A stretch of DNA of 33,578 nt from a virus. The notes beneath the pieces are model-generated. The model was not told where the DNA came from. It ran no database searches and worked only from the letters and a program-made list of their open reading frames with translations. Made by a program: the position numbers and the translations under genes. Location: the IMG/VR virus record IMGVR_UViG_3300020185_000016; one strand, 5' to 3'. Below, piece after piece: positions 1,576-16,564 of this stretch; the stretch's first letter is position 1; each line of letters opens with the position of its first letter.

Positions 1576-2397
1576 CTAATTATAATTTACATTTTGTTCT
1601 AATTCGCGATCATTTTTTAAATAATTTCGTCTATAATTATTATTGGCTTCAATAATATTTTCAAGTATTGGAAATTCACTTGTTTGCGATGCAAATGCTG
1701 CAAATGCTGCTGTATCTTTTGGAAAACATGCACCACCAAATCCACGCTTATTATCAAATCCCGGAACTAATGTATGTGAGCTATTAATACGCATATCACT
1801 TCCAATAGCAGAAATAATAGTTGAAAAATCGGCGTTAGAGCCATTTACAACATCATAGAATTGATTAAACCATAATACCTTAGATGCTAAAAAACAATTT
1901 ATCCCATATTTCACAAAGCTAGCTTCTACTCCAGTCATATGAAAACTTGGGCAAGGTTTGCAATTACTTAGTTTATTATATAGCTCTTCGAGTTGCAAAG
2001 TTTGTTCTTTATTGCCCCCAAAAATATGCATTGGAGGATTAACAAAATCTTCATTAGCATTTTTCTCTGTGAGGAATTCTGGATTATAAATTACATTAAT
2101 TGAATCTTTTTGAAGTTTTTCAATAATATCTGGTGTAACTGTTGACTTAATCACAATAAGGCCTGTAGCGTTATCTTTTAGCCAATTGACTGTTTCTTCA
2201 ACAATACTTCCATCAATTGCTCCATCTTTTCCCATTGGAGTTGGAACAGCAACAAATATTAGATCAAAGTCACCCTCTCGAAGATCCTCAATAGTATTGC
2301 CATGAATAGGATCAACAATAAATTTCGGAGTATTAACAAACCCATATTCAATAGCTTTACCAACAAACCCATGCCCTACGATAGCAATCTTATTCAT
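1576..2397 (-). CDS. UDP-glucose/GDP-mannose dehydrogenase family protein (short form without C-terminal domain)
   Basis: GHGFVG Rossmann motif, VAVPTP, KSTV, YNPEFL, catalytic GFGGACFPKD; 273 aa. Confidence 0.88.
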   Translation of the reverse strand: MNKIAIVGHGFVGKAIEYGFVNTPKFIVDPIHGNTIEDLREGDFDLIFVAVPTPMGKDGAIDGSIVEETVNWLKDNATGLIVIKSTVTPDIIEKLQKDSINVIYNPEFLTEKNANEDFVNPPMHIFGGNKEQTLQLEELYNKLSNCKPCPSFHMTGVEASFVKYGINCFLASKVLWFNQFYDVVNGSNADFSTIISAIGSDMRINSSHTLVPGFDNKRGFGGACFPKDTAAFAAFASQTSEFPILENIIEANNNYRRNYLKNDRELEQNVNYN

Positions 2398-2422
2398 AAT
2401 GCATTCTCCTTTAATTAGTATT

Positions 2423-2451
2423 ATTATATACTATTTTTTAAACATTGTAAA
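2423..2451 (-). promoter_or_regulatory. Sigma70-type promoter
   Basis: TTTACA-N17-TATAAT, followed by AAGGAG RBS. Confidence 0.75.
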
Positions 2452-3109
2452 TAGATTTATAATGCTTTCTTGCTTTAATTAAATCTTTTAAATAATCATG
2501 CGGTTTGGTTATAAAAGTTTGAGGGGCATCGCCATCTACCGTAATAAGAACAACGCTTTGTTTAATCGGAATTCCAGTTCTTTCGAAAAATGCCGCGGCA
2601 TAAAATGCACATTGCATAAAATAGTTTTGAATCCATTCTTCTTTTTTGGGTTTTCTTGATGTTTTAAAATCAATAATAGAAAGTTCTCCGGCCCATTCGC
2701 CAATACAATCAACTTGACCCGCGCATTTAAAATGATCAGAATATAGAAATTCTTCTTGAAACCAAACATTATTAATATTTGCATCAATGATAGGTTTAAT
2801 GTCATTAAAAGACGCTACATTATTCGGCAAGACACCCTTTAAATAATCTTCATTATTATTCAAATAATCTTCACATATTTGATGAACTTTTGTGCCCCGC
2901 TTTGATGCTCGGGCAGAAATTTTATTAGCTTCTTCTTCGCCAACTCTTTTGCGCCATGCTTTAATACTATCTTTGCTAAGTTCACTTAATACAGTAGTAA
3001 TTGAAGGATAAGTATTACCTTCTGGAGTAAAATACCGCCGCCCCTTTTCAGTTGTTTTGCGAGTAAGCTTTGGTAAAATTATTCCATGATCATAATGTGT
3101 AATAGGCAT
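2438..3109 (-). CDS. PD-(D/E)XK exonuclease (conserved T4-like phage exonuclease)
   Basis: YPSITTVL, RGTKVH, AGQVDC..IIDFKTS, YFMQCAFYA. Confidence 0.88.
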   Translation of the reverse strand: MPITHYDHGIILPKLTRKTTEKGRRYFTPEGNTYPSITTVLSELSKDSIKAWRKRVGEEEANKISARASKRGTKVHQICEDYLNNNEDYLKGVLPNNVASFNDIKPIIDANINNVWFQEEFLYSDHFKCAGQVDCIGEWAGELSIIDFKTSRKPKKEEWIQNYFMQCAFYAAAFFERTGIPIKQSVVLITVDGDAPQTFITKPHDYLKDLIKARKHYKSIYNV

Positions 3110-4065
3110 TAGTTAACACCATAAAATTCTTTGTACCATGTAATAAAGTTTGCAACGCCAACACTCATCGGTGTAGTTGGTTTATAGCCTAGTTTTTGAA
3201 GTTTAGTGGTATCACTCCAGGTTGCTTGGCTATCCGCAGGATGCATTGGCACTAATTCTTTAATAGCAGTGCGATCAAGATTGTATTCAATAGCTTCTAC
3301 AAAATCCGCAAGCTTAACCTGATCACCATATCCAATATTATATATCTCTCTAATATCAGTCTTAGTTAATGTTTCATTAATAACAATTTCAATACCCTGA
3401 ACAATATCATCTACATAAGTAAAATCACGAATCATATCACCATAATTAAATAATTCGATTGGTTTTTCATCGATAATATTTTTTGTAAAATCAAATAGCG
3501 CCATGTCAGGACGCCCCCATGGACCATACACAGTAAAGAAACGCAAACCAATAGTATTGGTAATAGCACTTGCCATAAACTGGGATTCATTTGTAGATTT
3601 ACTAAACCCATATGGATTTAGCTGATAGCCAGTTTTTTCGTCTTCTTTCCATGGTAATGGGTTTCCAACCATAGTGCATGATGTTGATGCGTATACAACA
3701 TTCTCAATGCCGTTATCTTCACATACACTAATAAGATTTTGAGTACCAGTAATATTATTATCAATATACAATTGAGGATCTGTCATTGAATGACGCACAC
3801 CAGCATAACCCCCAAGGTGAACCACCACATCTGGTTTATGTTCCTTCATAAAATCTTCTAGGTCGGGTTTCCATGTTAAATCAGCTACATCAATTTTAAT
3901 ACCAAAATCTTTGTATAGCTTCACAGTTCGGGCTGTCTTTAATGCCGGATCATAGTAGTCATTAAAATTATCAAAGCCACATACTTCAAAGCCATTGCTA
4001 TGTAATGATTGCGCCAAGTGAAAGCCAATGAAACCAGCTCCTCCAGTAATTGCTACTTTAGTCAT
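3109..4065 (-). CDS. NAD-dependent nucleotide-sugar epimerase (UDP-glucuronate 4-epimerase-like)
   Basis: TGGAGFIG, DNFNDYYD, AGVRHS, YxxxK (YGFSK), RFFTVYGPWGRPDMA, RDFTYVDD. Confidence 0.92.
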   Translation of the reverse strand: MTKVAITGGAGFIGFHLAQSLHSNGFEVCGFDNFNDYYDPALKTARTVKLYKDFGIKIDVADLTWKPDLEDFMKEHKPDVVVHLGGYAGVRHSMTDPQLYIDNNITGTQNLISVCEDNGIENVVYASTSCTMVGNPLPWKEDEKTGYQLNPYGFSKSTNESQFMASAITNTIGLRFFTVYGPWGRPDMALFDFTKNIIDEKPIELFNYGDMIRDFTYVDDIVQGIEIVINETLTKTDIREIYNIGYGDQVKLADFVEAIEYNLDRTAIKELVPMHPADSQATWSDTTKLQKLGYKPTTPMSVGVANFITWYKEFYGVN

Positions 4066-4092
4066 TCAGTGTATCCTTTTAATTATAATATT

Positions 4093-4121
4093 ATTATAAC
4101 ACAATAATTGTATTTTGTACA
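4093..4121 (-). promoter_or_regulatory. Sigma70-type promoter
   Basis: TGTACA-N17-TATAAT upstream of the epimerase. Confidence 0.65.
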
Positions 4122-4124
4122 TGT

Positions 4125-4490
4125 TTAAAATGTTACTACTCGCCCAGCTACTTTAAAATATAATTCTTCACTACCGTCATCATGTATAACATGACCGCAT
4201 GCCATTTTACACTTATTACATGCCGCATCAGGATCTTCAAATAAAAGTTTATAGAAGTTATTCCACTGAGGAGAAGATATAATTTCGAGGGGGGTTTTAC
4301 CAGATTTTACATTTAATTCTTCATCAAATAAATTATGGACATTATCTCTTTTGCAATCAAATGTGTCCATCCAGCAACAGGGTAAATAATTTCCTGAAGC
4401 AGTAAAAGCAATACAATTACCCATTGTATAGCGAACATTATTTCCATCTTTATCAAATGGAAAACATTTAGGTCTAATCTCTAATTTCAT
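4125..4490 (-). CDS. Stand-alone SPASM/twitch-like Fe-S domain protein
   Basis: PKC...FTASGNYLPCCW...EIISSPQW...ACNKCKMAC matches the SPASM Cys pattern; overlaps the radical SAM gene by 17 nt. Confidence 0.65.
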   Translation of the reverse strand: MKLEIRPKCFPFDKDGNNVRYTMGNCIAFTASGNYLPCCWMDTFDCKRDNVHNLFDEELNVKSGKTPLEIISSPQWNNFYKLLFEDPDAACNKCKMACGHVIHDDGSEELYFKVAGRVVTF

Positions 4491-5250
4491 TTAAAATCTC
4501 ATTATATTCGTCTACACTATTAATATATAGTTTTTTTGAAAACCCACTGAAGTTTTTTAATGCAGGCGCTGTAGGGGGTTGAAGCGGATTGTCATTTCGG
4601 CCTGGCGCGCCAAATCTAGATGATGTTAATAATTGAAATTTTATTCCATAATCATTTGCCATTTGGATAGCGGTGGGTATATCTTTTTCATTATATTCAA
4701 ATACAATGTATTGCCAAATAACCTCTCCGTGATCTTTTACGTTTTGCGCAACATATTTCATAGCATTGAAAGCAGAATCAAAAGATTGATTTACTCGATG
4801 CAAACTAGTTTTTTGATTTATACCATCTATACCGAAAATCCATTGCATAAAATAATTACCAGAATTAGTAATATCAACCAATTCTTCCCACCATACAGTT
4901 TTTTTCCCATGGCCAGTTGTATGAAATTCAATAAATTTAAGATTATCAACAGTATTAAGTGCACGCATTAAATCATGCATTTTAGGGTGATACACTGGAT
5001 CGGATATTTGTCCACAAAAACAAAGTCTTGTCCATGTTTGTGCCATTTTTATAGCATCATTTATTCTAAGATCACCATATTCAACTTGATATTGTTTAAC
5101 AACAGCTTTACCAACAGAATTTTGTCGAGTGCAATATGGGCATTGGAGTAAACATCTATGAGAAGTATCTACATTTATGGTCCGATCTGTCATAATTTTT
5201 AAGGCGGAAGAATAATAGTTATTCCAATTTTTTAACATACGAGTGGTCAT
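4474..5250 (-). CDS. Radical SAM protein
   Basis: CLLQCPYC (CxxxCxxC), CGQISDP, HTTG, FGIDG, WQYIVFEYN. Confidence 0.85.
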   Translation of the reverse strand: MTTRMLKNWNNYYSSALKIMTDRTINVDTSHRCLLQCPYCTRQNSVGKAVVKQYQVEYGDLRINDAIKMAQTWTRLCFCGQISDPVYHPKMHDLMRALNTVDNLKFIEFHTTGHGKKTVWWEELVDITNSGNYFMQWIFGIDGINQKTSLHRVNQSFDSAFNAMKYVAQNVKDHGEVIWQYIVFEYNEKDIPTAIQMANDYGIKFQLLTSSRFGAPGRNDNPLQPPTAPALKNFSGFSKKLYINSVDEYNEILNEIRD

Positions 5251-5253
5251 TTT

Positions 5254-5697
5254 TTAAATCTCTATAAATTCATATTTAAGGTCAACTTCACCAAACATAG
5301 CGCTAGTGCGGTCAAATACATCTAGCCATTTATCTGGATAATCCATAGCAGGCATAATTACTTTTTTAATTCCAACTTGAATAATCCCCTTGGCACATTC
5401 GTTACAAACAGGTAATCCCCAAACATAAAGAGTAGCGCCATCTAATGATACTCCATTATATGTAGCATTATATATTACATTCTGTTCTGCATGGACAACA
5501 TATTGGTGCTTGACAGCTTTATCATTATAACGAATTGCACCATCATATATTCCTCGAGGAAATCCATTATAACCTTGCGCTAATACTTGACCCTTATCAC
5601 CAATAGCAACCGCGCCAATTTGGCGCGCCGGGTCTTTTGACCAAGTGCTAATTTCTTTAGCCAATTTTAAATAACGAAGATTCCAATTTTCACTCAT
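5254..5697 (-). CDS. dCMP deaminase
   Basis: WSKDP, GYNGFPRG, HAEQN, PVCNEC zinc-deaminase motifs. Confidence 0.95.
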   Translation of the reverse strand: MSENWNLRYLKLAKEISTWSKDPARQIGAVAIGDKGQVLAQGYNGFPRGIYDGAIRYNDKAVKHQYVVHAEQNVIYNATYNGVSLDGATLYVWGLPVCNECAKGIIQVGIKKVIMPAMDYPDKWLDVFDRTSAMFGEVDLKYEFIEI

Positions 5698-5722
5698 TTA
5701 TATATCCTTGCTAGATTTAAAT

Positions 5723-5866: not shown

Positions 5867-5917
5867 TTATAGCCTCTAAAATTAAATATTATTTATAATT
5901 AAACATATACTTATTAC

Positions 5918-6130
5918 CTATACGTTCCATTCTAATTTATCTTCGATAGCCATTGAAACAAATTGATAATAATCTCGGTTTTCATCATCCATTTGGGCAA
6001 AGTATATGGCTGCTCGCCCCATTAGCTCGTGAATCTTACTATCTGGTTCAAGGTGTGCGTTAGGATGGCTTTCCATAAGCATTTGTATTTCATCCATGAT
6101 ACCATTTATTTTTTCTTGAATCTTACTCAT
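5918..6130 (-). CDS. Hypothetical protein
   Basis: 70 aa ORF overlapping the stop of the upstream gene. Confidence 0.65.
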   Translation of the reverse strand: MSKIQEKINGIMDEIQMLMESHPNAHLEPDSKIHELMGRAAIYFAQMDDENRDYYQFVSMAIEDKLEWNV

Positions 6131-6572
6131 TTTTTAAACCATTTGAACTATCGTGTTTTTCAAGTTCTGCATGCAGAACACGTCGCCTTAATCCTGAAGA
6201 CGAAAACCTATGATCGCGCTTATTAAAGTATAAACTAATATTTCTGCGGCGGCATTCATCCTTACCAGTAAAATCTTTATTTTTATATTCATCACCGAGG
6301 ATACGCACATTGATTGGATACATATTAATAATATCTATTAAATCACTTTCAGTACAATATACAATAACTTCATCAACATATTTTACAGCATTTAGCTGAG
6401 AATATCGTTCAACTATTGATTGAATAGGCGAATTTTTTTCTGCGCGGTTTACTGCAGGGTCAACCTGTAAAGCACAAATTAAATAATCACAATTTTCTTT
6501 TGCTTCTCTTAACATGGCAATATGGCCACTATGCAATAGATCAAATGTAGATGCTGTTAATCCAACAATCAT
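6123..6572 (-). CDS. Cytidylyltransferase (TagD/glycerol-3-phosphate cytidylyltransferase-like)
   Basis: TASTFDLLHSGH (HxGH), KYVDEV, RILGDEY, RFSSS. Confidence 0.9.
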   Translation of the reverse strand: MIVGLTASTFDLLHSGHIAMLREAKENCDYLICALQVDPAVNRAEKNSPIQSIVERYSQLNAVKYVDEVIVYCTESDLIDIINMYPINVRILGDEYKNKDFTGKDECRRRNISLYFNKRDHRFSSSGLRRRVLHAELEKHDSSNGLKNE

Positions 6573-6590
6573 GCGTATCCTCGTTTTTTT

Positions 6591-6830
6591 TTATTTTTTA
6601 CGCAAGGGCGTAAGTAGCCATGAACCGTCATTATTATCGGTCCAAATAATAGTATCACCAATTTTCAAGTTAAGGGCATCCATTAAATCATCCGGGAAAT
6701 TTAAATACATTTCACCGTCATCAGTTTCTTCAACTCCTACTTGAAAATCAATTGGTAATTGATTTTGAATATCGCCGGCGCTCGGTTCAAGGCCAGGTGA
6801 CAATTTTACGTCAGTATTAATATTTACCAT
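6591..6830 (-). CDS. AbrB/MazE-like swapped-hairpin domain protein
   Basis: DDGEMYLNFPDDLMDALNLKIGDTIIW pattern. Confidence 0.55.
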   Translation of the reverse strand: MVNINTDVKLSPGLEPSAGDIQNQLPIDFQVGVEETDDGEMYLNFPDDLMDALNLKIGDTIIWTDNNDGSWLLTPLRKK

Positions 6831-6989
6831 TTAATCTTCCTTTTTCCAAATAGTCCAGGCACCATAAAAGATTGCTGCATAAGCAATCAAATCCACCGGT
6901 ACCAAAATCATAGCAACCCCCGTTGCAATTAAAACTCCACCATCAAGTGTGGTTCTTTCAGTTAGTCTTTGCATTAGCCAATTTGTCAT
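6831..6989 (-). CDS. Small hypothetical membrane protein (52 aa)
   Basis: Not in ORF track: MTNWLMQRLTERTTLDGGVLIATGVAMILVPVDLIAYAAIFYGAWTIWKKED. TAATG coupling to the upstream gene; abuts the downstream start. Confidence 0.75.
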   Translation of the reverse strand: MTNWLMQRLTERTTLDGGVLIATGVAMILVPVDLIAYAAIFYGAWTIWKKED

Positions 6990-7333
6990 TACGCGTGTCC
7001 TACCGTTTCTCTTACAATATCATTATGCGAAAATTCTGCCCAATATAATTCAAATGCTACTCCGCTTTCTAAACATTCAAATTGATGATATACACCGGGC
7101 TTAACTTTGGTGTACATTCCTGCTTCAAGAATAGTTTCATCTACTAAATCATAATCGTTTTGCCATACACGAATAAGCATACGTCCAGATTCAACATAAA
7201 AACCATTCCATTTAAAGGCATGAAGATGTTTAGAACACACTCCGCCTTTATTCATTTCAATGCGGTGAAATTCTAAAGCACCGTTAGCTTCTACAAGTTC
7301 GGTATTGCCCCAAACTTTTCCAAAAATACCCAT
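6989..7333 (-). CDS. Cupin domain protein (sugar isomerase-like)
   Basis: CSKHLHAFKWNGFYVESG and VKPGVYHQF cupin motifs. Confidence 0.8.
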   Translation of the reverse strand: MGIFGKVWGNTELVEANGALEFHRIEMNKGGVCSKHLHAFKWNGFYVESGRMLIRVWQNDYDLVDETILEAGMYTKVKPGVYHQFECLESGVAFELYWAEFSHNDIVRETVGHA

Positions 7334-7335
7334 AC

Positions 7336-7461
7336 TTAATCCTTATCTCTCCATACTCTTTTTCCATTTTCAATATTCCAAGTTTTACCTGTGAATTTCT
7401 TGTGTCCAACATGAGTACCTTTATTCCAAGGAATATTACCCCTTAAAGTTTCAGCAATCAT
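7336..7461 (-). CDS. Small basic protein with PWNKG (NUMOD-like) motif, 41 aa
   Basis: Not in ORF track: MIAETLRGNIPWNKGTHVGHKKFTGKTWNIENGKRVWRDKD. AAGGAAG RBS; fills the gap exactly. Confidence 0.6.
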   Translation of the reverse strand: MIAETLRGNIPWNKGTHVGHKKFTGKTWNIENGKRVWRDKD

Positions 7462-7462
7462 A

Positions 7463-7681
7463 TTAACTTCCTTTTACTTTTTTCAAAGAGTTTTCAAAGG
7501 CAAAAAACAATTGTTCAAATTTCCATTGATACAATTGGTGCATGCCCATCAATGCGTTTGTAATTTCATCAATAGTAGGATCACGCTCACCGTCACATAT
7601 CTGTTTATACATGGTTTCCAAATCATCGCAAACCTGCCAACAATGCATAATGCTTTGCTCTAAATCAGTAGTCACAGCCAT
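7463..7681 (-). CDS. Hypothetical protein (start re-assigned to MAVTTDLEQ)
   Basis: GGGAG RBS before the ATG at 7681; avoids overlap with the upstream ORF. Confidence 0.7.
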
Positions 7682-7682: not shown

Positions 7683-7871
7683 TTAGCATACTCCCTTAAA
7701 CATTTCTTTTCGGCCCTCGATGCCAAGTTGAGAATCAAAAATATCTTTGAGACTTATAAGCATCATTGATGCTAGCATTAGAATTTCTTCGCGGCCATCA
7801 CACATTAAAATTGCTTCATCAATGGGGCGAGATAATTCTAGCATTTTAATTTTTACATTAGAGTCGTTCAT
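7683..7871 (-). CDS. Hypothetical protein
   Basis: 62 aa, tightly packed in the operon. Confidence 0.6.
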
Positions 7872-8553
7872 TATTCCATCTTTCTGCGTCTTGAGGAGTG
7901 TTGATTTCTATTCCATTAAATTCTGTTAATAATACACCAATATCCCATCCAGCTTTAAGCCAGCGCAACTGTTCCAAACTTTCAACGCGTTCTTCTTGTG
8001 GAATTGTTAATGTATTATATAGACTTAAGGCATTTCGAGTGTATCCATAAATGCCAAGATGCCAATCACCATAACCAGTCATGCCGCGGCCAAACCATAA
8101 AGCTTTATCACCAGCACGAACCAATTTAACAGTATTAGGATCTTCCTGTTGCTCTTTTGGCATTTTAGCTGCCATAGTAGTAACATTATAATGTTGAAGA
8201 TGCCATTTAGTTTTTTCAATCATATGCTGCGTTACGTCTGGCATATCACCTTGAACATTAATAAACTGATCATAATGCCCAATGTGCTTAGTAAACATTT
8301 GGTTTGTAATTGCACCAGCACATCTTTCGGTACCGTTTTCATATTTTGATTCTTGATCTATCCAGCATGCTCTTGGGCCAAGCTTATTAAAGACTCTCAT
8401 ATCATCAGTTAAAACATAGGTATCTAACTCAGATTTTTTGCATTCTGCATATACCCGCATAACCATTGTCATACCACCAAGGTCTGTTAATGGTTTACCT
8501 GGAAATCGGGTGCTATGGAATCTAGCTGGAATTAATATTGCGGTTTTAGTCAT
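7858..8553 (-). CDS. kdsB: 3-deoxy-manno-octulosonate cytidylyltransferase (CMP-KDO synthetase)
   Basis: IPARFHSTRFPGKPL, NGTERC, INVQGDMP, PNTVK, HLGIYGY, ESLEQLRWL. Confidence 0.93.
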   Translation of the reverse strand: MTKTAILIPARFHSTRFPGKPLTDLGGMTMVMRVYAECKKSELDTYVLTDDMRVFNKLGPRACWIDQESKYENGTERCAGAITNQMFTKHIGHYDQFINVQGDMPDVTQHMIEKTKWHLQHYNVTTMAAKMPKEQQEDPNTVKLVRAGDKALWFGRGMTGYGDWHLGIYGYTRNALSLYNTLTIPQEERVESLEQLRWLKAGWDIGVLLTEFNGIEINTPQDAERWNNERL

Positions 8554-9197
8554 TTGGGGCTAAGCACTTTCATACTTCTAAGTGTTTCAATATCAGTTAA
8601 TCCCGTAATTTTAGATATTAAATTTTTAGTAATAGCATCGTTTCTTAAATACAAATTTTCATACGATATACAATGCACATTAACTGCATCTATAAATTCG
8701 GAATTTTTCTTGTTTAGATCATTTAATATTGTATTAACAGTAGGATAGCTACCTCTAGTTATAATTAAATCCAGGTCCATAATTATTTGTGAAGCAATAC
8801 GAGCCCTACCATCTTCTCGATATAAGAAAAAAGCGTTATAATTGTAGTCTTCCATATGGGCTAAAAGAATTTTTATAAACCAAAGTGGAGTAAATTCAAC
8901 CATTACTTTTATATGAATTTTATGAGATAATATGGTTTTAACTGCTAAAACTAGAGATTCCATATTTTTATCTTTTTCATATTGTTTAATAATACAATAA
9001 AACTCTCCAATTTGATGATCAAATCGTTCATGCGAATAGGGCAAGTGCGGTAATGTATAGCCTAATTCTGATACACTTTTCAATACTGACTGATTAATAG
9101 AATCTAAATCAATTTCTTTTCTATAATTAATATCTAGCCAAGAAGTAAAACTACTAGATCCAGTACGCTGATTTGAAAATAATATAATAGGATTCAT
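8550..9197 (-). CDS. Sulfotransferase-like protein (Stf0-like P-loop fold)
   Basis: IILFSNQRTGSS (5'-PSB loop), FLYRED...S (3'-PB), ISYENL; very AT-rich. Confidence 0.6.
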   Translation of the reverse strand: MNPIILFSNQRTGSSSFTSWLDINYRKEIDLDSINQSVLKSVSELGYTLPHLPYSHERFDHQIGEFYCIIKQYEKDKNMESLVLAVKTILSHKIHIKVMVEFTPLWFIKILLAHMEDYNYNAFFLYREDGRARIASQIIMDLDLIITRGSYPTVNTILNDLNKKNSEFIDAVNVHCISYENLYLRNDAITKNLISKITGLTDIETLRSMKVLSPK

Positions 9198-9407: not shown

Positions 9408-9764
9408 ATGACAAATACACATACCGATTATGACAATAACGAATTCTTCAATGCGCTTGCTGTTAAGCTGGCTGATGAGGGGTTTGAAGATACTTCATAC
9501 GGCAATGATACGTGTCCATCACTTGGTTTAGAATTTGATCATGCTGGCCAAGAAGGTTTTATCCAGATTTTTATTGAATATGTAAATCCAGATCTTCGTG
9601 AATATCCACTCGAAGATAGCGAAGATTGTGTTATTATTAATTTCAGCATTGATGGTGATTTTATTCATAGTATGGCTTTAACCCATTTTAATATTGAAGA
9701 CACTCTTGCGCTAGTTGAAAAAATGCGCAAATATGTTTTGGAACAAATTCTTACAGTAGAATAA
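9408..9764 (+). CDS. Acidic hypothetical protein; only credible plus-strand gene
   Basis: AAAGGAAAC RBS, own promoter and terminator; D-T-S-Y-G-N-D-T-C-P-S motif. Confidence 0.8.
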   Translation: MTNTHTDYDNNEFFNALAVKLADEGFEDTSYGNDTCPSLGLEFDHAGQEGFIQIFIEYVNPDLREYPLEDSEDCVIINFSIDGDFIHSMALTHFNIEDTLALVEKMRKYVLEQILTVE

Positions 9765-9783: not shown

Positions 9784-9814
9784 AAAAAGCGGTGAATTTC
9801 GGTTCATCGCTTTT
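9784..9814. terminator. Bidirectional intrinsic terminator
   Basis: AAAAAGCGGTGAAT-TTCG-GTTCATCGCTTTT between convergent genes. Confidence 0.85.
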
Positions 9815-10595
9815 AATCTTTTAATTCGTACTTAAGGGCCGGACCGGATTCATATCCAATAATACTAATATCATCCGGAACAAAACTATAAATGTCTGTT
9901 TGATCAGTAAATTTAATTATTGGTTTAGCATCTAATATAGGGCGCGCAATTTGTTCTTTTGCATTATCAATATGCTCTTCATAGATATGGGCGTCGCCAA
10001 CAATCATAGTAATTTTACCAGCTTTTTTATTAGATACTGATGCAAAACACATAAGCATTACAGCCGCAAAAACTGCATCACTTGGCACACCAATCATCCA
10101 ATCACCACTTCTTTGGACCCATAGCATATCTACAATACCATCGTGCTCATAAAATTGATAATTATGATGACAACATGGCAAATTCAAATCATTAAGATTA
10201 TCTGGGCGCCATCCACTAATAACCATGCGGCGGTCATGTGGATTATTAATAAGGCTATCAACCACAGCCGCCATTTGATCAACACCGTTAAAATCGCGCC
10301 ATGCATTGCCGTAATCAACATTAATAGATCCATCGGCATTTGCCCACAGATCCCAGTAATTACAACCCCATTTACGGAAATCATCAATGTGTTTTGGTCC
10401 GCGGATCATTGCGGCATATTCACCAATAACACCAGCATAAAACATTTTACGGGTAGTTAGTAAAGGAAATTCTGTTTCTAAATCAAACTCAAGTGTTTTA
10501 AACGGAAGGCTGAGCGTAGTGCCATTACGCCCCTTCCGCTCATAACCATTATTTAGAATTTCTTCAGTAACTTTTAAAAACTGCGCTTCAAACAT
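9813..10595 (-). CDS. ThyA-family thymidylate synthase homolog with Asp at the Asn177-equivalent position (possible dCMP methylase/hydroxymethylase)
   Basis: RNGTT, FPLLTTRKM, DRRMVISGW, LPCCH catalytic Cys, QRSGDWMIGVPSD, DAHIYEEH. Confidence 0.9.
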   Translation of the reverse strand: MFEAQFLKVTEEILNNGYERKGRNGTTLSLPFKTLEFDLETEFPLLTTRKMFYAGVIGEYAAMIRGPKHIDDFRKWGCNYWDLWANADGSINVDYGNAWRDFNGVDQMAAVVDSLINNPHDRRMVISGWRPDNLNDLNLPCCHHNYQFYEHDGIVDMLWVQRSGDWMIGVPSDAVFAAVMLMCFASVSNKKAGKITMIVGDAHIYEEHIDNAKEQIARPILDAKPIIKFTDQTDIYSFVPDDISIIGYESGPALKYELKD

Positions 10596-10936
10596 TAATC
10601 GATATGCTCCGGTTGATTTAGAAAATTACGACCCGGAATTTGACCATCCATTTCACCACGAAGATATGCAACAATAAATGACGAATAATTAATCATATCT
10701 TTAGCGCTATCTTCAAGGCTTTCAAAGTTAGGCTCATAGTCTTTTGATTGCATTGCTTCCATCACAGATTGAATGCGTAACATTTTCATGTGGCACATAT
10801 CAAGTAGAGTAGCTACACCATTAGGGAAATAATCCGCTTGACGGATTCTGCTATTAGGGTTTTGATAATCATTACCTTTGCGTTCTTGTAGTTCGATACA
10901 TTCATGCAAAACTGCTACACTGGCGCTAACTGTCAT
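10595..10936 (-). CDS. Nucleotide-modification-associated domain 1 (Nmad1/DUF1599-like) protein
   Basis: LQERKGNDY...MKMLRI...ESLEDSAKDMINYS pattern; TAATG-coupled to the ThyA homolog. Confidence 0.65.
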   Translation of the reverse strand: MTVSASVAVLHECIELQERKGNDYQNPNSRIRQADYFPNGVATLLDMCHMKMLRIQSVMEAMQSKDYEPNFESLEDSAKDMINYSSFIVAYLRGEMDGQIPGRNFLNQPEHID

Positions 10937-10965: not shown

Positions 10966-10994
10966 ATTATAGCATATATTTTTACAATAGTAAA
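10966..10994 (-). promoter_or_regulatory. Sigma70-type promoter for Nmad1-ThyA
   Basis: TTTACT-N17-TATAAT with extended -10 TG. Confidence 0.8.
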
Positions 10995-10996
10995 CA

Positions 10997-11533
10997 TTAA
11001 AGTGGTGTTGGGTTTTTAAAAAAGTTTTCTATATTTACAACATATTTTGCAAATTTACCAGGAATCTTTCTTTTAATTATATCAGAGGCTTTTGCAATAC
11101 CAACAAAAGTGTGGGTAACAATATCCCCTTCTTGCAATAGAATAGCTGTATTACGGTTATCCTTATAGAAAAGAATATGTGACACAAGGCCGGCCTTTAC
11201 TGCATCTTTGAAGCTGTCTTTAATTGGAAACCAAATTGAAGAAATACATTTATTATCGATGCGCATATCAGCAATATTATAATCTGGCCAAAAATTAGCT
11301 GCAGTCCCGTATTCTTCGACAGTAGTATCTTTCGGTTTTACAAGTTTATTGTGGAGGAGCCACCATTCCAATAGTTCATAATCAATTCCAAGTTCGCCCA
11401 ATTCATAGTTAGATTCGCTTGCTTTTTTATTGCGGTACTCAATAAAATCTTTATCTACAACAATTTTAGCATTATTAATAAGAAGATTTAATTTACAAGC
11501 AATTTCATTATAATCAATCAAAGTAGGGGACAT
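10997..11533 (-). CDS. Hypothetical protein, possible PD-(D/E)XK nuclease
   Basis: E..EWW...FWPDYNIADMRIDNK resembles a PD-x8-D-x-K active site. Start uncertain (ORF track 11569; ATG at 11533 preferred). Confidence 0.45.
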   Translation of the reverse strand: MSPTLIDYNEIACKLNLLINNAKIVVDKDFIEYRNKKASESNYELGELGIDYELLEWWLLHNKLVKPKDTTVEEYGTAANFWPDYNIADMRIDNKCISSIWFPIKDSFKDAVKAGLVSHILFYKDNRNTAILLQEGDIVTHTFVGIAKASDIIKRKIPGKFAKYVVNIENFFKNPTPL

Positions 11534-12305
11534 AGGAATACTCCACAATATCGTGTAAAATGTCTTCAAAATCTTGGAGGTTTACCATATTAGGCCCATC
11601 AGATGGAGCATTATCCGGATTAGGGTGCACCTCTAAGAAGAAGTTAGTAACACCCAAAGCAGCGGCAGCACGAGTAAGACCTGGAACGTAGTCACGATTA
11701 CCGCCAGACGAGCTGCCGTGTCCCCCAGGCTTCTGGCACGAGTGGGTAGCATCAAATACGATCGGTACCCCCAAGTTATCAAGCATGTACTGAAGGCCAT
11801 TAAAATCGACCACAAGATTATTATACCCAAAACTAGTTCCCCTTTCTGTAATCCATACTTCTTTAGCGTCTTCTGTTTTGCTAAGGATGCCTTTTATATC
11901 CCATGGCGCTAAAAACTGACCCTTTTTAATATTAATAATTTTATCAGTCATACAAGCTGCACTAATTAAATCTGTCTGACGACAAAGAAATGCCGGAATT
12001 TGAATTACATCAACTGCTTCATTGTATTTGTAAGCTATTGCAGCAATATCAGTTGTAGAATGCACATCTGTTAAAATTTTAACATTAACCGTTTCTTTTA
12101 ATGACAAAAAGTCAAGCATTGTGGGTTCAAATCCCACACCACGTATACCATCAATACTTGTACGATTAGCTTTATCATAGCTAGCTTTAAAAATATATTC
12201 AACATCATATTTTGCACAAATATCAGCACAATGCTCAGCAATATCTAATGACATTGAAAGATTTTCATGTTGGCATGGACCGGCAATAATTCGTAAAGAT
12301 TCCAT
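11514..12305 (-). CDS. kdsA: KDO-8-phosphate synthase (metal-dependent type)
   Basis: IAGPC, KASYDKANRTS, QIPAFLCRQTDL, KKGQFLAPW, ERGTSFGYNNLVVD, FDATHS, EVHPNPDNAPSDGPN. Confidence 0.96.
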   Translation of the reverse strand: MESLRIIAGPCQHENLSMSLDIAEHCADICAKYDVEYIFKASYDKANRTSIDGIRGVGFEPTMLDFLSLKETVNVKILTDVHSTTDIAAIAYKYNEAVDVIQIPAFLCRQTDLISAACMTDKIINIKKGQFLAPWDIKGILSKTEDAKEVWITERGTSFGYNNLVVDFNGLQYMLDNLGVPIVFDATHSCQKPGGHGSSSGGNRDYVPGLTRAAAALGVTNFFLEVHPNPDNAPSDGPNMVNLQDFEDILHDIVEYSYVPYFD

Positions 12306-12307
12306 AA

Positions 12308-12445: not shown

Positions 12446-12511
12446 ATCAATCTCTCCATATTATATATTATATTTTACTATAATTATCAAAAAAAGTAAA
12501 CAGCTATTTAA

Positions 12512-13606
12512 TTAATTCCACCCAATCTTTTCCCACGGAACATCTTTATTGCCAAAATGACCGTACGTACAGTTTTTACTATATTCATAAAAATTAAACA
12601 TATCAAATCGGTCAATAATTCCTTTAGGGCTCAGATCAATTTCTTTACGAATAAACTTTTCAATACTTTTACTATAACCATTGGATTCTACATAAATGCT
12701 GATAGGTTGTTTAACTCCAATTGCATAGCTTAATTGAATATTACACCAGTCAGCCATTTCATCTGCTACAACATTTTTAGCGAGCCAACGTGCCATATAA
12801 GCCGCGCTGCGATCTACTTTCGTGGGGTCTTTACCACTAAAAGCACCGCCGCCGTGGGGAGCAAAGCCCCCATAAGTATCAACAATAATCTTACGTCCAG
12901 TAACACCAGCATCCCCATCAGGGCCGCCAATAACAAAATTACCAGTAGGATTAATATGCCATACAGTATTTTCATCAATCATATCTCCTAAACCACAATG
13001 CAATACGGCACCCCTTGCAAGGGTCCTTGCAGTTTGAATTTCATTAGCGGCATGTTGAGTACTAATAACAATTTGGTCTACCCGTTTAGCTATACCACCT
13101 TCGTATTGTATACTAATTTGTGATTTTGCATCGGGGCCTAATATATTATCTAATAATCGAATTTCTTTCAATTCTTTAAGAATTTCATGCGCATAATAAA
13201 TAGGAGCCGGTAAATAGGCATCATTATCATTACAAGCATAGCCAAACATAATACCCTGATCCCCAGCCCCAAAATCATCGGTGCCTAATGCAATATCAGC
13301 GCTTTGTGCATGGATTTCATTGTAAATTTTTAGATTATCCCAATGAAATCCCTCTTGTTCATATCCAATTTTTTTTACTGTATTACGAACAATTTCTTTA
13401 ACTTCTTCGTTGCTCACATTAAAGTTTTTTACTTCACCGGCCAACGTTACCATATTAGTAGTTGTAAGAGTTTCAACAGCAACACGAGTTGTCTCATCGC
13501 CGGCGCGCAATCCCGCATCAACAAGGGCGTCACTGATTTGGTCTGCTACTTTATCGGGGTGGCCGTCACTAACACTTTCACTAGTAAAAATATAATTTTG
13601 ATTCAT
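12512..13606 (-). CDS. metK: S-adenosylmethionine synthetase
   Basis: FTSESVSDGHPDK, GAGDQG, GGPDGDAGVTGRKIIVDTYGG, GGGAFSGKDPTKVDRS, YGHFG. Confidence 0.98.
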   Translation of the reverse strand: MNQNYIFTSESVSDGHPDKVADQISDALVDAGLRAGDETTRVAVETLTTTNMVTLAGEVKNFNVSNEEVKEIVRNTVKKIGYEQEGFHWDNLKIYNEIHAQSADIALGTDDFGAGDQGIMFGYACNDNDAYLPAPIYYAHEILKELKEIRLLDNILGPDAKSQISIQYEGGIAKRVDQIVISTQHAANEIQTARTLARGAVLHCGLGDMIDENTVWHINPTGNFVIGGPDGDAGVTGRKIIVDTYGGFAPHGGGAFSGKDPTKVDRSAAYMARWLAKNVVADEMADWCNIQLSYAIGVKQPISIYVESNGYSKSIEKFIRKEIDLSPKGIIDRFDMFNFYEYSKNCTYGHFGNKDVPWEKIGWN

Positions 13607-13608
13607 AA

Positions 13609-14424
13609 TTATTTCTTTTTTCTAAGTGGTAGGGCAATATCCACATCATCATCAATACATTGTTTACCATATTGTAATTCTACTATATGCGAAGCAATTT
13701 TAAATGGATTACTTGCTTCATACCAAGATTTAGCTGGAATAACTTGTGGTGGATCTTGTGGAGTTAATATTTTTTTATCTAAACCCCTATGTAGGTTTAG
13801 CTGAGTTTGCCCCTGTATTTGTGTCCAAAGTTCACTTCTATTTTTATGGCGTTGATTCATTAATGACTTTTTAGGCAAAATCATTAATTCTCTTAATTTA
13901 TAATGTAATCCTGTTTTTGGATCCACACCTTCGGCTAATATTCTATACCAGCCCCATTCCTGTAAAGTTTTTGCGCTTCTCCATTCATCAAGAATTTCAA
14001 AAGATGAATTAACTACTTCTCTGCCCACATCAAAAACAAAGGTTACTTGGGGGTTATCAATAAGTGGTTTATTATCTTCGGGTGGTTTGCTATAACCATT
14101 AGCACATATAATATCAGCTTTAGGATATTCTAGCATTATTTGTTGAATAAATTTAAGAGCAGTATCATCAGCATCCATATCAGAGGTAAAACAAACTGCT
14201 TTATTTACAAAACCAAGTTCCGCAATAATAGCATGTCTATCTTCTATATCAAGAAACGGCCGACCCCGACGTCGGGTCAACCGCTCATTAGAATGAATTC
14301 CAACAATAAGCATATCGCCAAGGCGAGCTGCTTCTTTTAAGTATTTAATATGTCCTTTATGTAATGGGTCAAACCCACCTGTTGCAAGAACAATTTTCTT
14401 TTTTCTAAACGGTTTTATACGCAT
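13609..14424 (-). CDS. Cytidylyltransferase fused to a cupin (mannose-6-phosphate isomerase-like) domain
   Basis: TGGFDPLHKGH; C-terminal WGWYRIL...QRHKNRSELW...IVELQYG. Confidence 0.8.
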   Translation of the reverse strand: MRIKPFRKKKIVLATGGFDPLHKGHIKYLKEAARLGDMLIVGIHSNERLTRRRGRPFLDIEDRHAIIAELGFVNKAVCFTSDMDADDTALKFIQQIMLEYPKADIICANGYSKPPEDNKPLIDNPQVTFVFDVGREVVNSSFEILDEWRSAKTLQEWGWYRILAEGVDPKTGLHYKLRELMILPKKSLMNQRHKNRSELWTQIQGQTQLNLHRGLDKKILTPQDPPQVIPAKSWYEASNPFKIASHIVELQYGKQCIDDDVDIALPLRKKK

Positions 14425-15346
14425 ATTCTATAGCCCTGTCTGCTTCTACTTGCAAGTTTCTTGATTCATATATTCGGGCAGTATCGTTATCTAATTCTCT
14501 TATAATATCTGCAATTTCATATGATGTTATTGGGTATTGTCGTCTAATAGCGCTAATTGCTATTGAGCTCATAATCTTATATATCATTCTATATCGGCCG
14601 CTGCCATCAGTAAAAGCCATTGTACGGTATTCATCAATTAATTTCTTTGAAACAAACGGACAATCACGATAACCATCCCAATGAATATTACTTTTTTCTA
14701 ATTGGTTAGCTCTAAAACTAACTATTTGTTTTTGTATTTCAGTCGGAAGCCTATCAATAAAATTTGCACTATGTTTTTTTTCTTCATACGGATGCTTGTC
14801 CATTAACCGATAGGGATTAATAGATGCGCCGTCAAGGTTAGAAAAAATAAAATTGTTACTATTAGCATAAGTTGCAGGCACGTAATACATACGAGAAAGG
14901 TCTTTAGTCTGCGTATCTCCGAGTCTGCCGATCTCTGTATTAAGGCTGTGCCAAAAATGTTTGATTCGTGAGCTTTCAACATGCGTCTCAAGAGGGAAGA
15001 CGAGGCGAAACTTCGGTAAAGAATTAGTACTGCTAGCAGTGCTATAACACACGTACCGATAATGGCCGAAATTAGTATATAACTCATCTTTTAAGTTACC
15101 CTTGAACTCATGATCGTCAACATCAGCAGCAGCCCAACCTGCCCAAGCCAATACATTAGCATTGGCTCTAGTTGTGCCAGCCTGGTAAGTAGCTGGAGAA
15201 ATAAGTTCTGCATCTTTTTTTCCATTTCGTTTAATATCAGACAATTTATATAAAAAGGATTCAAACGCATCAAAATCTTCGAAATCCATTTTTCGATGCG
15301 TTGCGTTATCAAATATAGATTTAAAAATCGTAGAAGAAATATTCAT
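14405..15346 (-). CDS. Archaeo-eukaryotic primase (PrimPol)-like protein
   Basis: LISPATY, RANANV, AAADVDD (DxD), YSTASS, PKFRLVFPL, KDLSRMYYVP. Confidence 0.7.
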   Translation of the reverse strand: MNISSTIFKSIFDNATHRKMDFEDFDAFESFLYKLSDIKRNGKKDAELISPATYQAGTTRANANVLAWAGWAAADVDDHEFKGNLKDELYTNFGHYRYVCYSTASSTNSLPKFRLVFPLETHVESSRIKHFWHSLNTEIGRLGDTQTKDLSRMYYVPATYANSNNFIFSNLDGASINPYRLMDKHPYEEKKHSANFIDRLPTEIQKQIVSFRANQLEKSNIHWDGYRDCPFVSKKLIDEYRTMAFTDGSGRYRMIYKIMSSIAISAIRRQYPITSYEIADIIRELDNDTARIYESRNLQVEADRAIEYAYKTV

Positions 15347-15374
15347 GATATTATCTAATTCACCAATTATAAGT

Positions 15375-15794
15375 TTAGTCGTTAAGAAGTGCTTTGTTTA
15401 AATCGCCGTGATTACCTATATGACTCGGAGCTACCCACCCATCCGGCTTAATAAGGTCCGGAAGTCCGAATTTGTTCGGACGACCTTCTTTTACACCTGG
15501 TGATTTAGCCATATTTGCTTCATACACTCGATCCCACGCGTCATTAGCATCAACACCAAATACATCAAGAGTACCAATAGCAAATACACACAAGTCAATA
15601 AGGCCATCAACAATTTCTTCTGGATCTTTTGCATCCAGCGCGTCAAGTGTTTCGTCTAGTTCTTCTTTGCACATCGACAAGCGGAATTTTAAATATTTAT
15701 CCATCAATTCTTTATTATTACAATTAGCAAGGAACCAATCCCTAACACCAAATTTATTATGCATCATATAGATGTCATTTACCCAGTCACTCAT
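15375..15794 (-). CDS. All-alpha NTP pyrophosphohydrolase (MazG/PRA-PH-like; dUTPase/dCTPase candidate)
   Basis: EELDE..EEIVDGLID (ExxE..ExxD), ANMAK, DLIKPDGWVAP. Confidence 0.8.
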   Translation of the reverse strand: MSDWVNDIYMMHNKFGVRDWFLANCNNKELMDKYLKFRLSMCKEELDETLDALDAKDPEEIVDGLIDLCVFAIGTLDVFGVDANDAWDRVYEANMAKSPGVKEGRPNKFGLPDLIKPDGWVAPSHIGNHGDLNKALLND

Positions 15795-15825
15795 AATATA
15801 TCCTCTTATTATAATTTATAATACT

Positions 15826-15854
15826 ATTATACCACACCCGCAAACCGATGTACA
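15826..15854 (-). promoter_or_regulatory. Sigma70-type promoter
   Basis: TGTACA-N17-TATAAT with extended -10 TG, inside the 3' end of the HAD gene. Confidence 0.7.
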
Positions 15855-16564
15855 TCAGAATTTTCAATTGCCCAAAGAATCCTTTGGGTATCTTGCCAGT
15901 CTTTTACATGAAATGCTTCTGAACCCGGACGATCCTTAATAGCGGCTTTAAGAGGGAAATCATTACCACCCCAATCCATACTATCTCCGAAGAAATAAAT
16001 GGGACCACTTAACCGATCTGCTAACTGACGCTTATCAAAACCAATAGGGGCAATATCCAGACCGGTTTCGCCAGCAATTTGGGCAACTACACCTGCCCCA
16101 ACAAACCGTTCATTAAAGGCAGAAGCAATTTGCAAACGATCACCGGTATGATAATCCCATTCTACATAAGCGGCTCTTTGTTCAAGATTACAATTTCTTC
16201 CAACAATACTAAAATTAACCAAGCCCGGCCGGTGATCAATGTGCAAGCCGGTTTTATGAAAAAATTTATTTTCCACAACTTGATTATTTAGCCAGTTTTG
16301 AATAGCTTTTGGAAGAACCCAATCCGAACTTTCAATTTCTATTCCTTTTTTCCAAATTGAATTACCAGAACAATTATGAATTTCCCTTACGCTATTACAT
16401 ATTTTATCTCCGAGCTGCGCATATGTTTTAGCATAATCGGATCCAGTAATAAGATATACTGTATTATTTTTTACAAAGTTCAAGAAAAATGTTTTAAAGT
16501 CTTTATCCATTTTTTGACGGCTTGGCGTAAGCGTACCGTCCACATCAAAAACATAATTAATCAT
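15827..16564 (-). CDS. HAD-IIB phosphomannomutase-like hydrolase
   Basis: FDVDGTLTPSR, ITGSD, NFSIVGRN, FFGDSMDWGGND. Start re-assigned to the ATG overlapping the gp43 stop (TAATG). Confidence 0.85.
   Translation of the reverse strand: MINYVFDVDGTLTPSRQKMDKDFKTFFLNFVKNNTVYLITGSDYAKTYAQLGDKICNSVREIHNCSGNSIWKKGIEIESSDWVLPKAIQNWLNNQVVENKFFHKTGLHIDHRPGLVNFSIVGRNCNLEQRAAYVEWDYHTGDRLQIASAFNERFVGAGVVAQIAGETGLDIAPIGFDKRQLADRLSGPIYFFGDSMDWGGNDFPLKAAIKDRPGSEAFHVKDWQDTQRILWAIENSDVHRFAGVV

Follow-up and report, generated by a model that had tools for sequence, protein, structure and literature searches.

The interval between gp43 and uvsX was analyzed in a DNA stretch of 33,578 nucleotides (IMG/VR record IMGVR_UViG_3300020185_000016; hereafter the window), which comes from an uncultured marine T4-like myovirus whose regA, gp62, gp44, gp45, gp46, gp47 and uvsW genes follow the T4 order. 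The interval is bounded by the genes for the family-B DNA polymerase gp43 (16564-19089; Pfam DNA_pol_B and exonuclease domain) and the UvsX recombinase (463-1509; Pfam T4_UVSX_C and RecA) and contains approximately 25 minus-strand genes. According to the list of open reading frames (ORFs), every credible gene of the window but one was on the minus strand; the window genes described below are on that strand unless stated otherwise. The gp43 polymerase was 56% identical to that of Phage C48C1 (Kyanoviridae) and ~50% identical to those of cyanomyoviruses. Megablast of 20 kb of the window against 50,697 phage records returned zero matches, whereas near-identical fragments occur in the metagenomes IMG 3300025880, 3300009508, 3300025694 and 3300020169. 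An original prediction, made from the sequence alone, had listed genes for nucleotide and sugar metabolism in this interval, and Pfam, NCBIfam and PHROGs confirmed its inventory, with sub-threshold qualifications for the KdsB-like, radical SAM, Nmad1 and UGDH-like genes. T4 indeed keeps gene 42 and b-gt between gene 43 and uvsX, as had been stated, and its interval contains imm, 42, b-gt and segA. In RB69, the same interval is occupied by the arabinosyl-5-hydroxycytosine cluster, which encodes an arabinose-5-P isomerase, a nucleotidyltransferase-kinase, a HAD phosphatase, a ThyA-like 5-hydroxy-dCMP synthase, a glycosyltransferase (GT) and a nucleotide kinase (PMC13326640). A phage-made sugar-nucleotide pathway that feeds DNA glycosylation at the gp43-uvsX locus is known biology (RB69; PMC13326640). 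Thus, given the RB69 precedent at the same locus, it was reasonable to hypothesize a single pathway that attaches an acidic sugar to modified cytosine.

The gene at 9813-10595 encodes a thymidylate synthase (TS) homolog (Pfam 9.5e-67) that is predicted to be a dCMP C5-methylase, i.e., a 5-methyl-dCMP synthase. Residues were called from alignments to solved TSs and a residue table (E. coli ThyA numbering). At the position of Asn177 the alignment placed an Asp (PFN to PSD; GVPSD aligned to PFN), so that the Asp-type ThyA homolog of the original prediction stood. Besides N177D, the TS catalytic set was intact, with Arg21, Glu58, Trp80, Trp83, Tyr94, Arg126/127, Cys146, Asp169, His207, Tyr209 and a full TS-like C-terminal tail; residues 143 and 147 were Leu and His. 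The N177D change goes with dCMP as substrate, replacement of Leu143 by Asp or Glu with hydroxymethylation and D169N with 5-hydroxylation (PMC13326640). The dCMP hydroxymethylase (dCH) of T4 is also marked by Val85 in place of Trp83, by Asp145 and by loss of the C-terminal tail (PMC6400193). Of the marks of gp42-type hydroxymethylases, the window enzyme had Asp177, and neither an acidic residue 143 nor Val at Trp83 was present and the tail was retained. Its QRSGD motif keeps Asp169, different from the 5-hydroxy-dCMP synthase gp48 of RB69. Of the features of XP12-type methylases, the TS catalytic set with N177D was found, as were genes for a deaminase and a PRA-PH protein in the same island. Engineered N177D synthases methylated dCMP according to work cited in PMC8670742. 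In viromes, the signature of phages with 5-methylcytosine (5mC) is an Asp177 synthase with PRA-PH and a deaminase, and five of seven tested enzymes produced 5-methyl-dCMP (bioRxiv 2024.12.05.627091). With a complete TS active site that carries only the specificity switch, the predicted product of the window enzyme is 5-methyl-dCMP. Given this methyl-transfer signature, no hydroxyl would therefore be left for glycosylation. Pfam revealed no second ThyA-family gene in the window, and no enzyme for a hydroxyl-bearing base precursor, be it 5-hydroxymethylcytosine (5hmC), 5-hydroxycytosine or 5-hydroxymethyluracil, was found there, the sole ThyA-family gene having the methyl signature. Searches for Tet_JBP in the relatives were negative, the control genomes being uninformative for this family, and no search of the window had a validated positive control. 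The N177D/Leu143 clade was abundant in marine viromes, and its enzymes could serve practically for making 5-methyl-dC nucleotides.

Three further genes accompany the ThyA homolog in a nucleotide module. The first encodes a MazG/PRA-PH all-alpha NTP pyrophosphatase (15375-15794; Pfam PRA-PH 2.7e-10), a candidate dCTPase/dUTPase. Its best solved relative was the dUTP-specific MazG-like DR2231, a kinship compatible with a gp56-like dCTPase/dUTPase role, and its close orthologs (58-84% identical) were confined to islands with Nmad1 and/or a ThyA-family gene. The second encodes a small helical Nmad1/DUF1599-like protein (10595-10936), a conserved partner in the module that matched Pfam DUF1599 below the threshold (E 0.003). 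Six of its eight orthologs matched DUF1599, and it matched phrog_18404, annotated as hydrolase, at 2e-15; comparison of the Nmad1 profile with the PDB found nothing. The third encodes a dCMP/dCTP-family deaminase (5254-5697; Pfam dCMP_cyt_deam_1 3.1e-18). The Nmad1-like protein was 56-61% identical to those of T4-like relatives, and the deaminase was 59-65% identical to those of gp42-bearing relatives and 31% identical to that of XP12.

At the corresponding position, six T4-like relatives, whose gp43 proteins were 58-64% identical to that of the window, possess enzymes that are clearly orthologous to T4 gp42, all with Asp143, Thr147, Asp169 and Asp177. In a maximum likelihood tree these six enzymes grouped with T4 gp42 (support 100/98), and the window ThyA homolog was on the TS side, split from the gp42 clade at 99/96. 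It fell within the Asp177/Leu143 clade, which was sister to ordinary Asn177 synthases, together with contigs that are not T4-like (100/99). On these marine donor-type contigs, Nmad1, ThyA and MazG genes are adjacent as a cassette without sugar genes. The nearest isolate was the Pelagibacter siphovirus Kolga, at 51%. Because true orthologs of gp42 occupy this place in T4-like relatives, we infer that the ThyA gene is a xenologous replacement of a gp42-type hydroxymethylase gene. The Nmad1, MazG and deaminase proteins of the window were 56-84% identical to those of T4-like relatives vs. 35-56% to those of donor-type contigs. The exchange was thus limited to the ThyA gene.

The island also contains a set of five sugar genes (set A), all of which have orthologs in islands of relatives with TAGT, the family of the T2/T6 beta-glucosyl-hydroxymethylcytosine-alpha-glucosyltransferase (PMC13216743). 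The PMM-like HAD-IIB phosphomutase or phosphatase (15827-16609; Pfam PMM 3.7e-22) has orthologs of 41-55% identity in TAGT islands. The small cupin (6989-7333; Pfam Cupin_2, weakly WbuC-like) was 80-89% identical to its orthologs in relatives' islands. The TagD/RfaE-II-like nucleotidyltransferase with a HIGH motif (6123-6572; Pfam CTP_transf_like 1.5e-12) matched g3p_cytidyltrns and rfaE_dom_II of NCBIfam below the cut-offs and has orthologs of 61-80% identity beside TAGT. The NAD-dependent nucleotide-sugar epimerase/dehydratase (3109-4065; Pfam Epimerase 3e-48) was 64-72% identical to orthologs that adjoin UGDH-like and GT genes. Finally, the truncated nucleotide-sugar dehydrogenase-like (UGDH-like) protein (1576-2397; Pfam UDPG_MGDP_dh_N and central domain) keeps the GxGxxG motif and the GGACFPKD motif with the catalytic Cys and lacks the C-terminal UDP-binding domain; it covers positions 76-303 of 413 of TIGR03026, below the cut-off. 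This short form is conserved in relatives (270-295 amino acid residues); it may act on something other than a UDP-sugar or may rely on a partner to bind the nucleotide.

In addition to set A, the island possesses genes related to 3-deoxy-D-manno-octulosonate (Kdo). The gene at 11514-12305 encodes the Kdo-8-phosphate synthase KdsA (NCBIfam NF003543, 343 bits with a cut-off of 242; TIGR01362, 326 bits with a cut-off of 314), and that at 7858-8553 encodes a KdsB-like CMP-Kdo synthetase (Pfam CTP_transf_3 3.3e-21), for which the five best NCBIfam matches were KdsB models (E to 7.5e-48), all below the curated cut-offs. Pfam and NCBIfam found neither KdsD (SIS domain) nor a KdsC-type HAD in the window; speculatively, a cupin and the PMM-like HAD could stand in for KdsD and KdsC. 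A second HIGH-motif nucleotidyltransferase is fused to a cupin of the PMI type (13609-14424; Pfam CTP_transf_like and MannoseP_isomer; NCBIfam rfaE_dom_II-like, below the cut-off). The sulfotransferase-like gene of the original prediction corresponds to 8550-9197 and encodes a protein of 215 amino acid residues with a P-loop kinase/sulfotransferase fold, which scored 0.95-0.96 against Stf0/Sulfotransfer_3 clusters in the ESM Atlas. Its N-terminus resembles a 5'-phosphosulfate-binding loop (PIILFSNQRTGSS). The structural model, with a predicted local distance difference test (pLDDT) of 72, gave weak Foldseek matches to PezT, sulfotransferases and P-loop kinases and no GT fold, and PDB profile searches with this protein were empty. 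All sugar ORFs were intact and 41-89% identical to their orthologs.

The gp43-uvsX island is hypervariable, and in many relatives gp43 lies directly beside uvsX. A large group of relatives has a TAGT gene (PF20691, E 2.5e-38), a gene for an archaeo-eukaryotic primase (AEP) and orthologs of the five set A genes, with a further TAGT or a GT4 gene in some of the islands. No ThyA-family gene was found in TAGT genomes, even in the 100% complete G009. A second group has MazG, primase, Nmad1, gp42 and deaminase genes, with or without sugar genes. In G004, the relative with the gene order most similar to that of the window, the order is gp43, PMM, MazG, primase, phosphoenolpyruvate (PEP) carboxykinase, Nmad1, KdsA, KdsB, cupin, nucleotidyltransferase, gp42, deaminase, two radical SAM/SPASM pairs, alpha-glucosyltransferase (AGT), epimerase, UGDH, C5-methyltransferase and uvsX. 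Its AGT aligned end to end with the T4 alpha-glucosyltransferase 1xv5 (1.2e-42). Relative to G004, the hydroxymethylase, AGT and C5-methyltransferase are jointly absent from the window, which is coherent with a switch from glycosylated hydroxymethylcytosine to 5mC. The complete genome G005 has genes for gp42, deaminase, an epimerase-like protein, a 381-residue ORF, UDP-galactopyranose mutase and C5-methyltransferase. Phage KdsA, KdsB, epimerase, TagD and UGDH have been treated as cell-wall or lipopolysaccharide (LPS) genes (PMC12801897, PMC5332604). The synteny of the sugar genes with DNA glycosyltransferases argues that at least their ancestors would have served DNA. The original intuition about this locus holds at the level of the lineage, in which sugar genes lie beside DNA GT homologs, with RB69 as precedent, whereas the single-pathway reading is not supported for the window phage. 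In marine myoviruses, synteny with DNA GT homologs questions the usual cell-envelope annotation of the genes for epimerase, dehydrogenase, TagD-like and PMM-like proteins and makes them directly testable candidates for new DNA sugars.

Several additional observations were made in the islands of relatives. TAGT genes occurred in L180, L187, L212, L092 and ~70 other loci and were always followed by an ORF of ~100 amino acid residues. In L247 (G004; 3477-4724 and 6482-7672), AGT is directly upstream of the epimerase and UGDH-like genes and a C5 cytosine methyltransferase gene is beside uvsX. The gene of C48C1 annotated as a DNA methyltransferase was considered as a mis-annotated TAGT, and this was rejected. 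Genes for ATP-dependent PEP carboxykinase are in islands that bear KdsA (L107:8020-9318 and L108:13032-14231), suggesting a phage supply of PEP for Kdo-8-phosphate synthesis. Two islands with gp42 and without sugar genes have three conserved ORFs before uvsX (L088:16905-19791 and L142:10124-13020), of ~300 (with a weak PALP match), ~315 and ~355 amino acid residues, which could be for a different, non-sugar hypermodification of 5hmC.

Co-occurrence was assessed with Fisher tests in 37 non-redundant gp43-anchored islands. Of the 21 islands with TAGT, 20 also had sugar set A (p 5e-5), and ThyA-family genes were in 0 of 21 TAGT islands vs. 6 of 16 others (p 0.003). Co-variation of sugar genes with the ThyA homolog across relatives, a check named in advance, was not observed, as set A and ThyA-family genes were independent (odds ratio 0.95, p 1.0). 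This result favors the other option that had been offered, two independent modules. The co-occurrence tests give direction, not proof.

No transferase that could place a sugar on DNA was found. Pfam GT families matched none of the ORFs scanned over the 33.5 kb of the window, and tblastn with a relative's AGT, TAGT and C5-methyltransferase against the window yielded nothing (E > 0.4). Hhalign of four ORFs without assignment against the TAGT profile gave probabilities below 1%, with 0.15% for the orphan ORF at 10997-11569; Pfam and hhalign against TAGT were the two comparisons that covered the ORFs at 21125-21874, 22838-23515 and 32158-32889. The earlier statement that the island has no recognizable DNA glycosyltransferase holds after fold, tblastn and hhalign comparisons, and the search for one beyond the island found none in the rest of the window. 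Exact-word extension recovered L251 as the left flank belonging to this phage (99.9% over 1217 bp); no GT is encoded there, the genes being those for gp41, a cell-wall hydrolase, a P-loop kinase and a small HIGH-motif nucleotidyltransferase. The protein of 8550-9197 was considered as the missing GT and ruled out by its P-loop/sulfotransferase-like fold and motifs. Moreover, gp42-type enzyme, AGT, beta-glucosyltransferase (BGT) and TAGT are all absent from the window, and no dNMP kinase was seen there.

Gene identities, active-site residues, synteny and co-occurrence are observed directly, whereas all enzymatic products and the DNA chemistry are inferred. The best explanation, to which we give about an even chance, is that the gp43-uvsX interval is a mosaic hypervariable hot spot for DNA modification, in which a 5-methyl-dC replacement module stands beside a sugar/Kdo cassette that was inherited and lacks a DNA transferase. 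The MazG-like and Nmad1-like pyrophosphatases would convert dCTP, and dUTP, to the monophosphate, and the N177D TS homolog would convert dCMP to 5-methyl-dCMP via ordinary folate-dependent hydride transfer. A kinase encoded outside the window would then form the triphosphate, and incorporation by gp43 would place 5mC in DNA instead of cytosine. As in Xanthomonas phage XP12, dU or dT nucleotides would come from the deaminase. The gp42-type hydroxymethylase gene was replaced by the N177D gene, the DNA alpha-glucosyltransferase and C5-methyltransferase of the most similar relative being absent here. Set A is orthologous to the cassette that adjoins DNA-type glycosyltransferases in relatives, to which the window adds KdsA, KdsB, the sulfotransferase-like gene and the second nucleotidyltransferase-cupin. 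Together, the sugar genes might produce activated sugars, CMP-Kdo and an NDP-sugar, possibly oxidized; as acceptor, a glycan of host or virion is conceivable, as is DNA if an unseen enzyme acts. MetK and the radical SAM pair would be separate passengers, as would the nuclease, the AEP primase and the small ORFs. Because the hydroxymethylase and the DNA sugar transferase of the relatives are missing at the locus, cytosine methylation rather than glycosylation is most likely in the window phage, as judged from gene content. If this prediction holds, a T4-like phage has switched from hydroxymethyl- or glycosyl-cytosine to 5mC by a one-gene swap at the classical modification locus, and the case would be nature's own experiment on the way phages alter their anti-restriction coat.

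Several points weigh against the mosaic reading. The proven methylase of XP12 has Asn at 143, and the Leu143 rule is correlative. In the ThyA clade of the window, the catalytic Tyr is directly preceded by an unusual Asp (NVDYG), adjacent to the water-activation site of T4 dCH. Intact sugar genes are odd if the transferase is gone. Kdo genes were found only in islands with the nucleotide module (3 of 3 vs. 4 of 34, p 0.0045), which would fit a functional link, although the phages concerned form one subclade. In addition, the co-occurrence statistics ignore shared descent, TAGT had been the bait for half of the loci, and a large number of the contigs are incomplete. Finally, the 33.5 kb seen belong to a genome of ~150-220 kb, the remainder of which could encode a transferase, a second ThyA/ThyX or a dNMP kinase, just as the alpha-gt of T4 lies elsewhere.

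The Asp before the catalytic Tyr, atypical for TS, and the confinement of the Kdo genes, which are interleaved with gp42 in L107 and L108, would fit the single hypermodification pathway first proposed, in which a hydroxylated cytosine nucleotide would be the product of the ThyA homolog and an unrecognized or outside transferase would add an acidic sugar, Kdo or a uronate and perhaps sulfated, on DNA. T4 and RB69 hold complete base-plus-sugar pathways in the same interval, orthologs of the window sugar genes directly adjoin AGT or TAGT homologs in relatives, and the orphan ORF at 10997-11569 has no family assignment. However, from Leu143, Trp83, Asp169 and the C-terminal tail one would expect transfer of a methyl rather than a hydroxymethyl or hydroxy group (PMC13326640, PMC6400193), no GT was detected in 33.5 kb by folds, tblastn or profile comparisons, the hydroxymethylase and the AGT are both missing relative to G004, and set A is independent of ThyA-family genes. 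We consider the single pathway unlikely. The broader proposal that the sugar genes, by way of CMP-Kdo and possibly a sulfated or oxidized sugar, donate to DNA hypermodification by an unrecognized or elsewhere-encoded transferase, and that many LPS-type genes of marine T4-like phages serve DNA glycosylation, is quite improbable to us. If true, the island would encode an acidic octulosonic-acid or sulfated decoration of DNA bases that is not yet described.

It is also rather doubtful that the window phage makes no wholesale DNA modification at all, with the N177D enzyme and the deaminase forming a uracil-free route to dTMP (dCMP to 5-methyl-dCMP to dTMP), MazG serving house-cleaning as in cyanophages and the sugar, Kdo and sulfotransferase genes remodeling the host envelope. 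A path to dT nucleotides by deamination after methylation is documented for XP12-type phages, although the documented cases with the same enzymes also show full replacement by 5mC (bioRxiv 2024.12.05.627091). The window has no second ThyA-family gene, which would agree with such a route; the close orthologs of MazG and Nmad1, however, are found only together with ThyA-family genes in the lineage, as exclusion of dCTP predicts, and the gene that was replaced is an ortholog of gp42, a DNA-modification enzyme. For the envelope part, the published assignment of the phage KdsA, KdsB, epimerase, TagD and UGDH genes to cell wall and LPS speaks in favor, but remodeling needs a transferase too, and none is present in the window. 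The lack of glycosyltransferase and dNMP kinase there also speaks for this reading. That the donor-sugar genes are a functionless remnant on its way out, stranded after the hydroxymethylase and the DNA GT were lost or replaced, is highly improbable: the GT is absent while its usual neighbors persist and a nuclease gene splits the epimerase and UGDH-like genes, which are adjacent in relatives, but every sugar ORF is intact, a second metagenomic copy (L002) keeps the sugar genes at 99-100% identity, and the window has extra sugar-related genes, for the sulfotransferase-like protein and the nucleotidyltransferase-cupin fusion, that are missing from most of the related loci fetched.

The mosaic reading was further compared with known systems. 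The window resembles XP12-type 5mC replacement in its clustered genes for an Asp177 ThyA-family enzyme, a dCMP_cyt_deam protein and a PRA-PH pyrophosphatase, in agreement with the cassette statistics in bioRxiv 2024.12.05.627091. Different from XP12, whose enzyme is 25% identical to that of the window and has Asn143 and Pro147, the window virus is a T4-like myovirus and not a siphovirus or PolA podovirus, its deaminase is inherited from gp42-bearing relatives and not acquired with the ThyA gene, no DHFR is in the window, and the 5mC product is predicted from sequence. With the glucosyl-hydroxymethylcytosine system of the T-even phages (gp42, gp56, cd, alpha-gt, beta-gt as well as TAGT), the window shares the gp43-uvsX slot, a pyrophosphatase and a deaminase, and its closest relatives carry gp42 and alpha-GT orthologs in this slot; it differs in having no gp42-type enzyme (no Asp145, no Val85, tail kept), AGT, BGT or TAGT. 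Similar to RB69 and DLP3, which make arabinosyl-5-hydroxycytosine (PMC13326640), the window phage is T4-like and has its own sugar-nucleotide genes in the gp43-uvsX interval beside a ThyA homolog. However, the isomerase, HAD phosphatase and nucleotidyltransferase of RB69 are not homologous to the window sugar enzymes, gp48 has Glu143 and Asn169 where the window enzyme has Leu143 and Asp169, and the RB69 cluster contains GT-B arabinosyltransferases and a nucleotide kinase, neither of which the window has. Marine TAGT-plus-sugar cassettes occupy the same interval and share with the window the AEP primase and orthologs (41-89%) of its PMM-like, cupin, TagD-like nucleotidyltransferase, epimerase and truncated UGDH genes; they carry a TAGT gene or two, in some cases with GT4, but lack ThyA-family genes, and the window is the reverse. 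Finally, KdsA, KdsB, epimerase, TagD-like and UGDH-like genes in a marine T4-like phage recall the LPS/cell-wall genes of cyanomyoviruses, such as kdsA and kdsB of S-SCSM2R (PMC12801897), except that those of the window sit in the DNA-modification slot among nucleotide genes and those of its relatives adjoin DNA glycosyltransferase homologs.

The interval contains additional genes, five of which the original prediction had omitted. The ORF at 14405-15346, of 313 amino acid residues, encodes an AEP-type primase-polymerase (phrog_9765, DNA primase). Folded with 13 orthologs, it gave an AlphaFold pLDDT of 84 and Foldseek matches to a RepB' primase (2.6e-4) and the AEP domain of the cyanophage S-2L PrimPol (2.9e-4), and its DVDD motif was invariant. 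Its assignment as a gp61-type primase or as a base or sugar enzyme was rejected, as BLAST against T4 gp61 was empty and the fold was that of an AEP PrimPol; it is a replication gene outside any sugar or base pathway. This stand-alone primase gene adjoins gp43 and was the most conserved gene of the interval, being present in 59 of 78 TAGT-anchored loci as well as in C48C1. The other omitted ORFs encode a PD-(D/E)XK exonuclease (2438-3109; phrog_298, exonuclease, 6.6e-74), an AbrB/MazE-like small DNA-binding protein (6591-6830; Pfam MazE_antitoxin 8.9e-5, below the cut-off), an acidic protein without family match, which is the sole plus-strand ORF in the ORF list (9408-9764) and is followed by a terminator-like hairpin at 9785-9814, and the orphan of 178-190 amino acid residues (10997-11569). 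The nuclease gene is inserted between the epimerase and UGDH-like genes and is located upstream of gp43 in L093 and L102. The orphan matched nothing in Pfam, PHROGs or NCBIfam, had a single homolog (87%) in 5.8 billion proteins and fell in unnamed clusters only in the ESM Atlas.

The S-adenosylmethionine synthetase MetK (12512-13606) has all three Pfam MetK domains, and no homolog was found in the ~150 related loci fetched, among which it is specific to the window phage. Its gene is near those for a radical SAM enzyme (4474-5250; CLLQCPYC motif; phrog_21308 1.6e-17; sub-threshold in Pfam) and its Cys-rich, SPASM-like partner, which is a separate, overlapping ORF (4125-4490; assigned by its Cys-rich sequence). 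Relatives hold this pair in one or two copies, and in G004 it is duplicated. Promoters of the sigma70 type, which had been proposed for most of the island, were without statistical support, as 102 sites were found vs. 95.6 +/- 8.2 in shuffled sequences; the top-scoring sites are in intergenic gaps.

Just past uvsX, a region that runs from window positions 1-153 (minus strand) into L251:4192-5041 encodes a P-loop kinase of 147 amino acid residues (APS_kinase/AAA_28-like) and a nucleotidyltransferase of 137 amino acid residues with a GRWQPWHDGH motif. The pair is kept (45-79%) in relatives with and without ThyA genes. The kinase was rejected as the missing dNMP kinase on account of this constant pairing, which is also found in ThyA-free islands; the pair looks like an NadR-like nicotinamide mononucleotide adenylyltransferase/ribosylnicotinamide kinase rather than a dNMP kinase. 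On the other side, L249 was set aside as right flank, as it overlaps the window by just 142 bp at 97%. Compared with window positions 33437-33578, a near-identical strain (L250:69-859; 99.7% over 4.6 kb) has ~650 bp extra. The extra ~650 bp adjoin the 142-bp segment, which is 97% conserved and common to another phage, in which it is followed by gp23 (L249); the arrangement could mark either a junction formed by recombination or a mobile insert.

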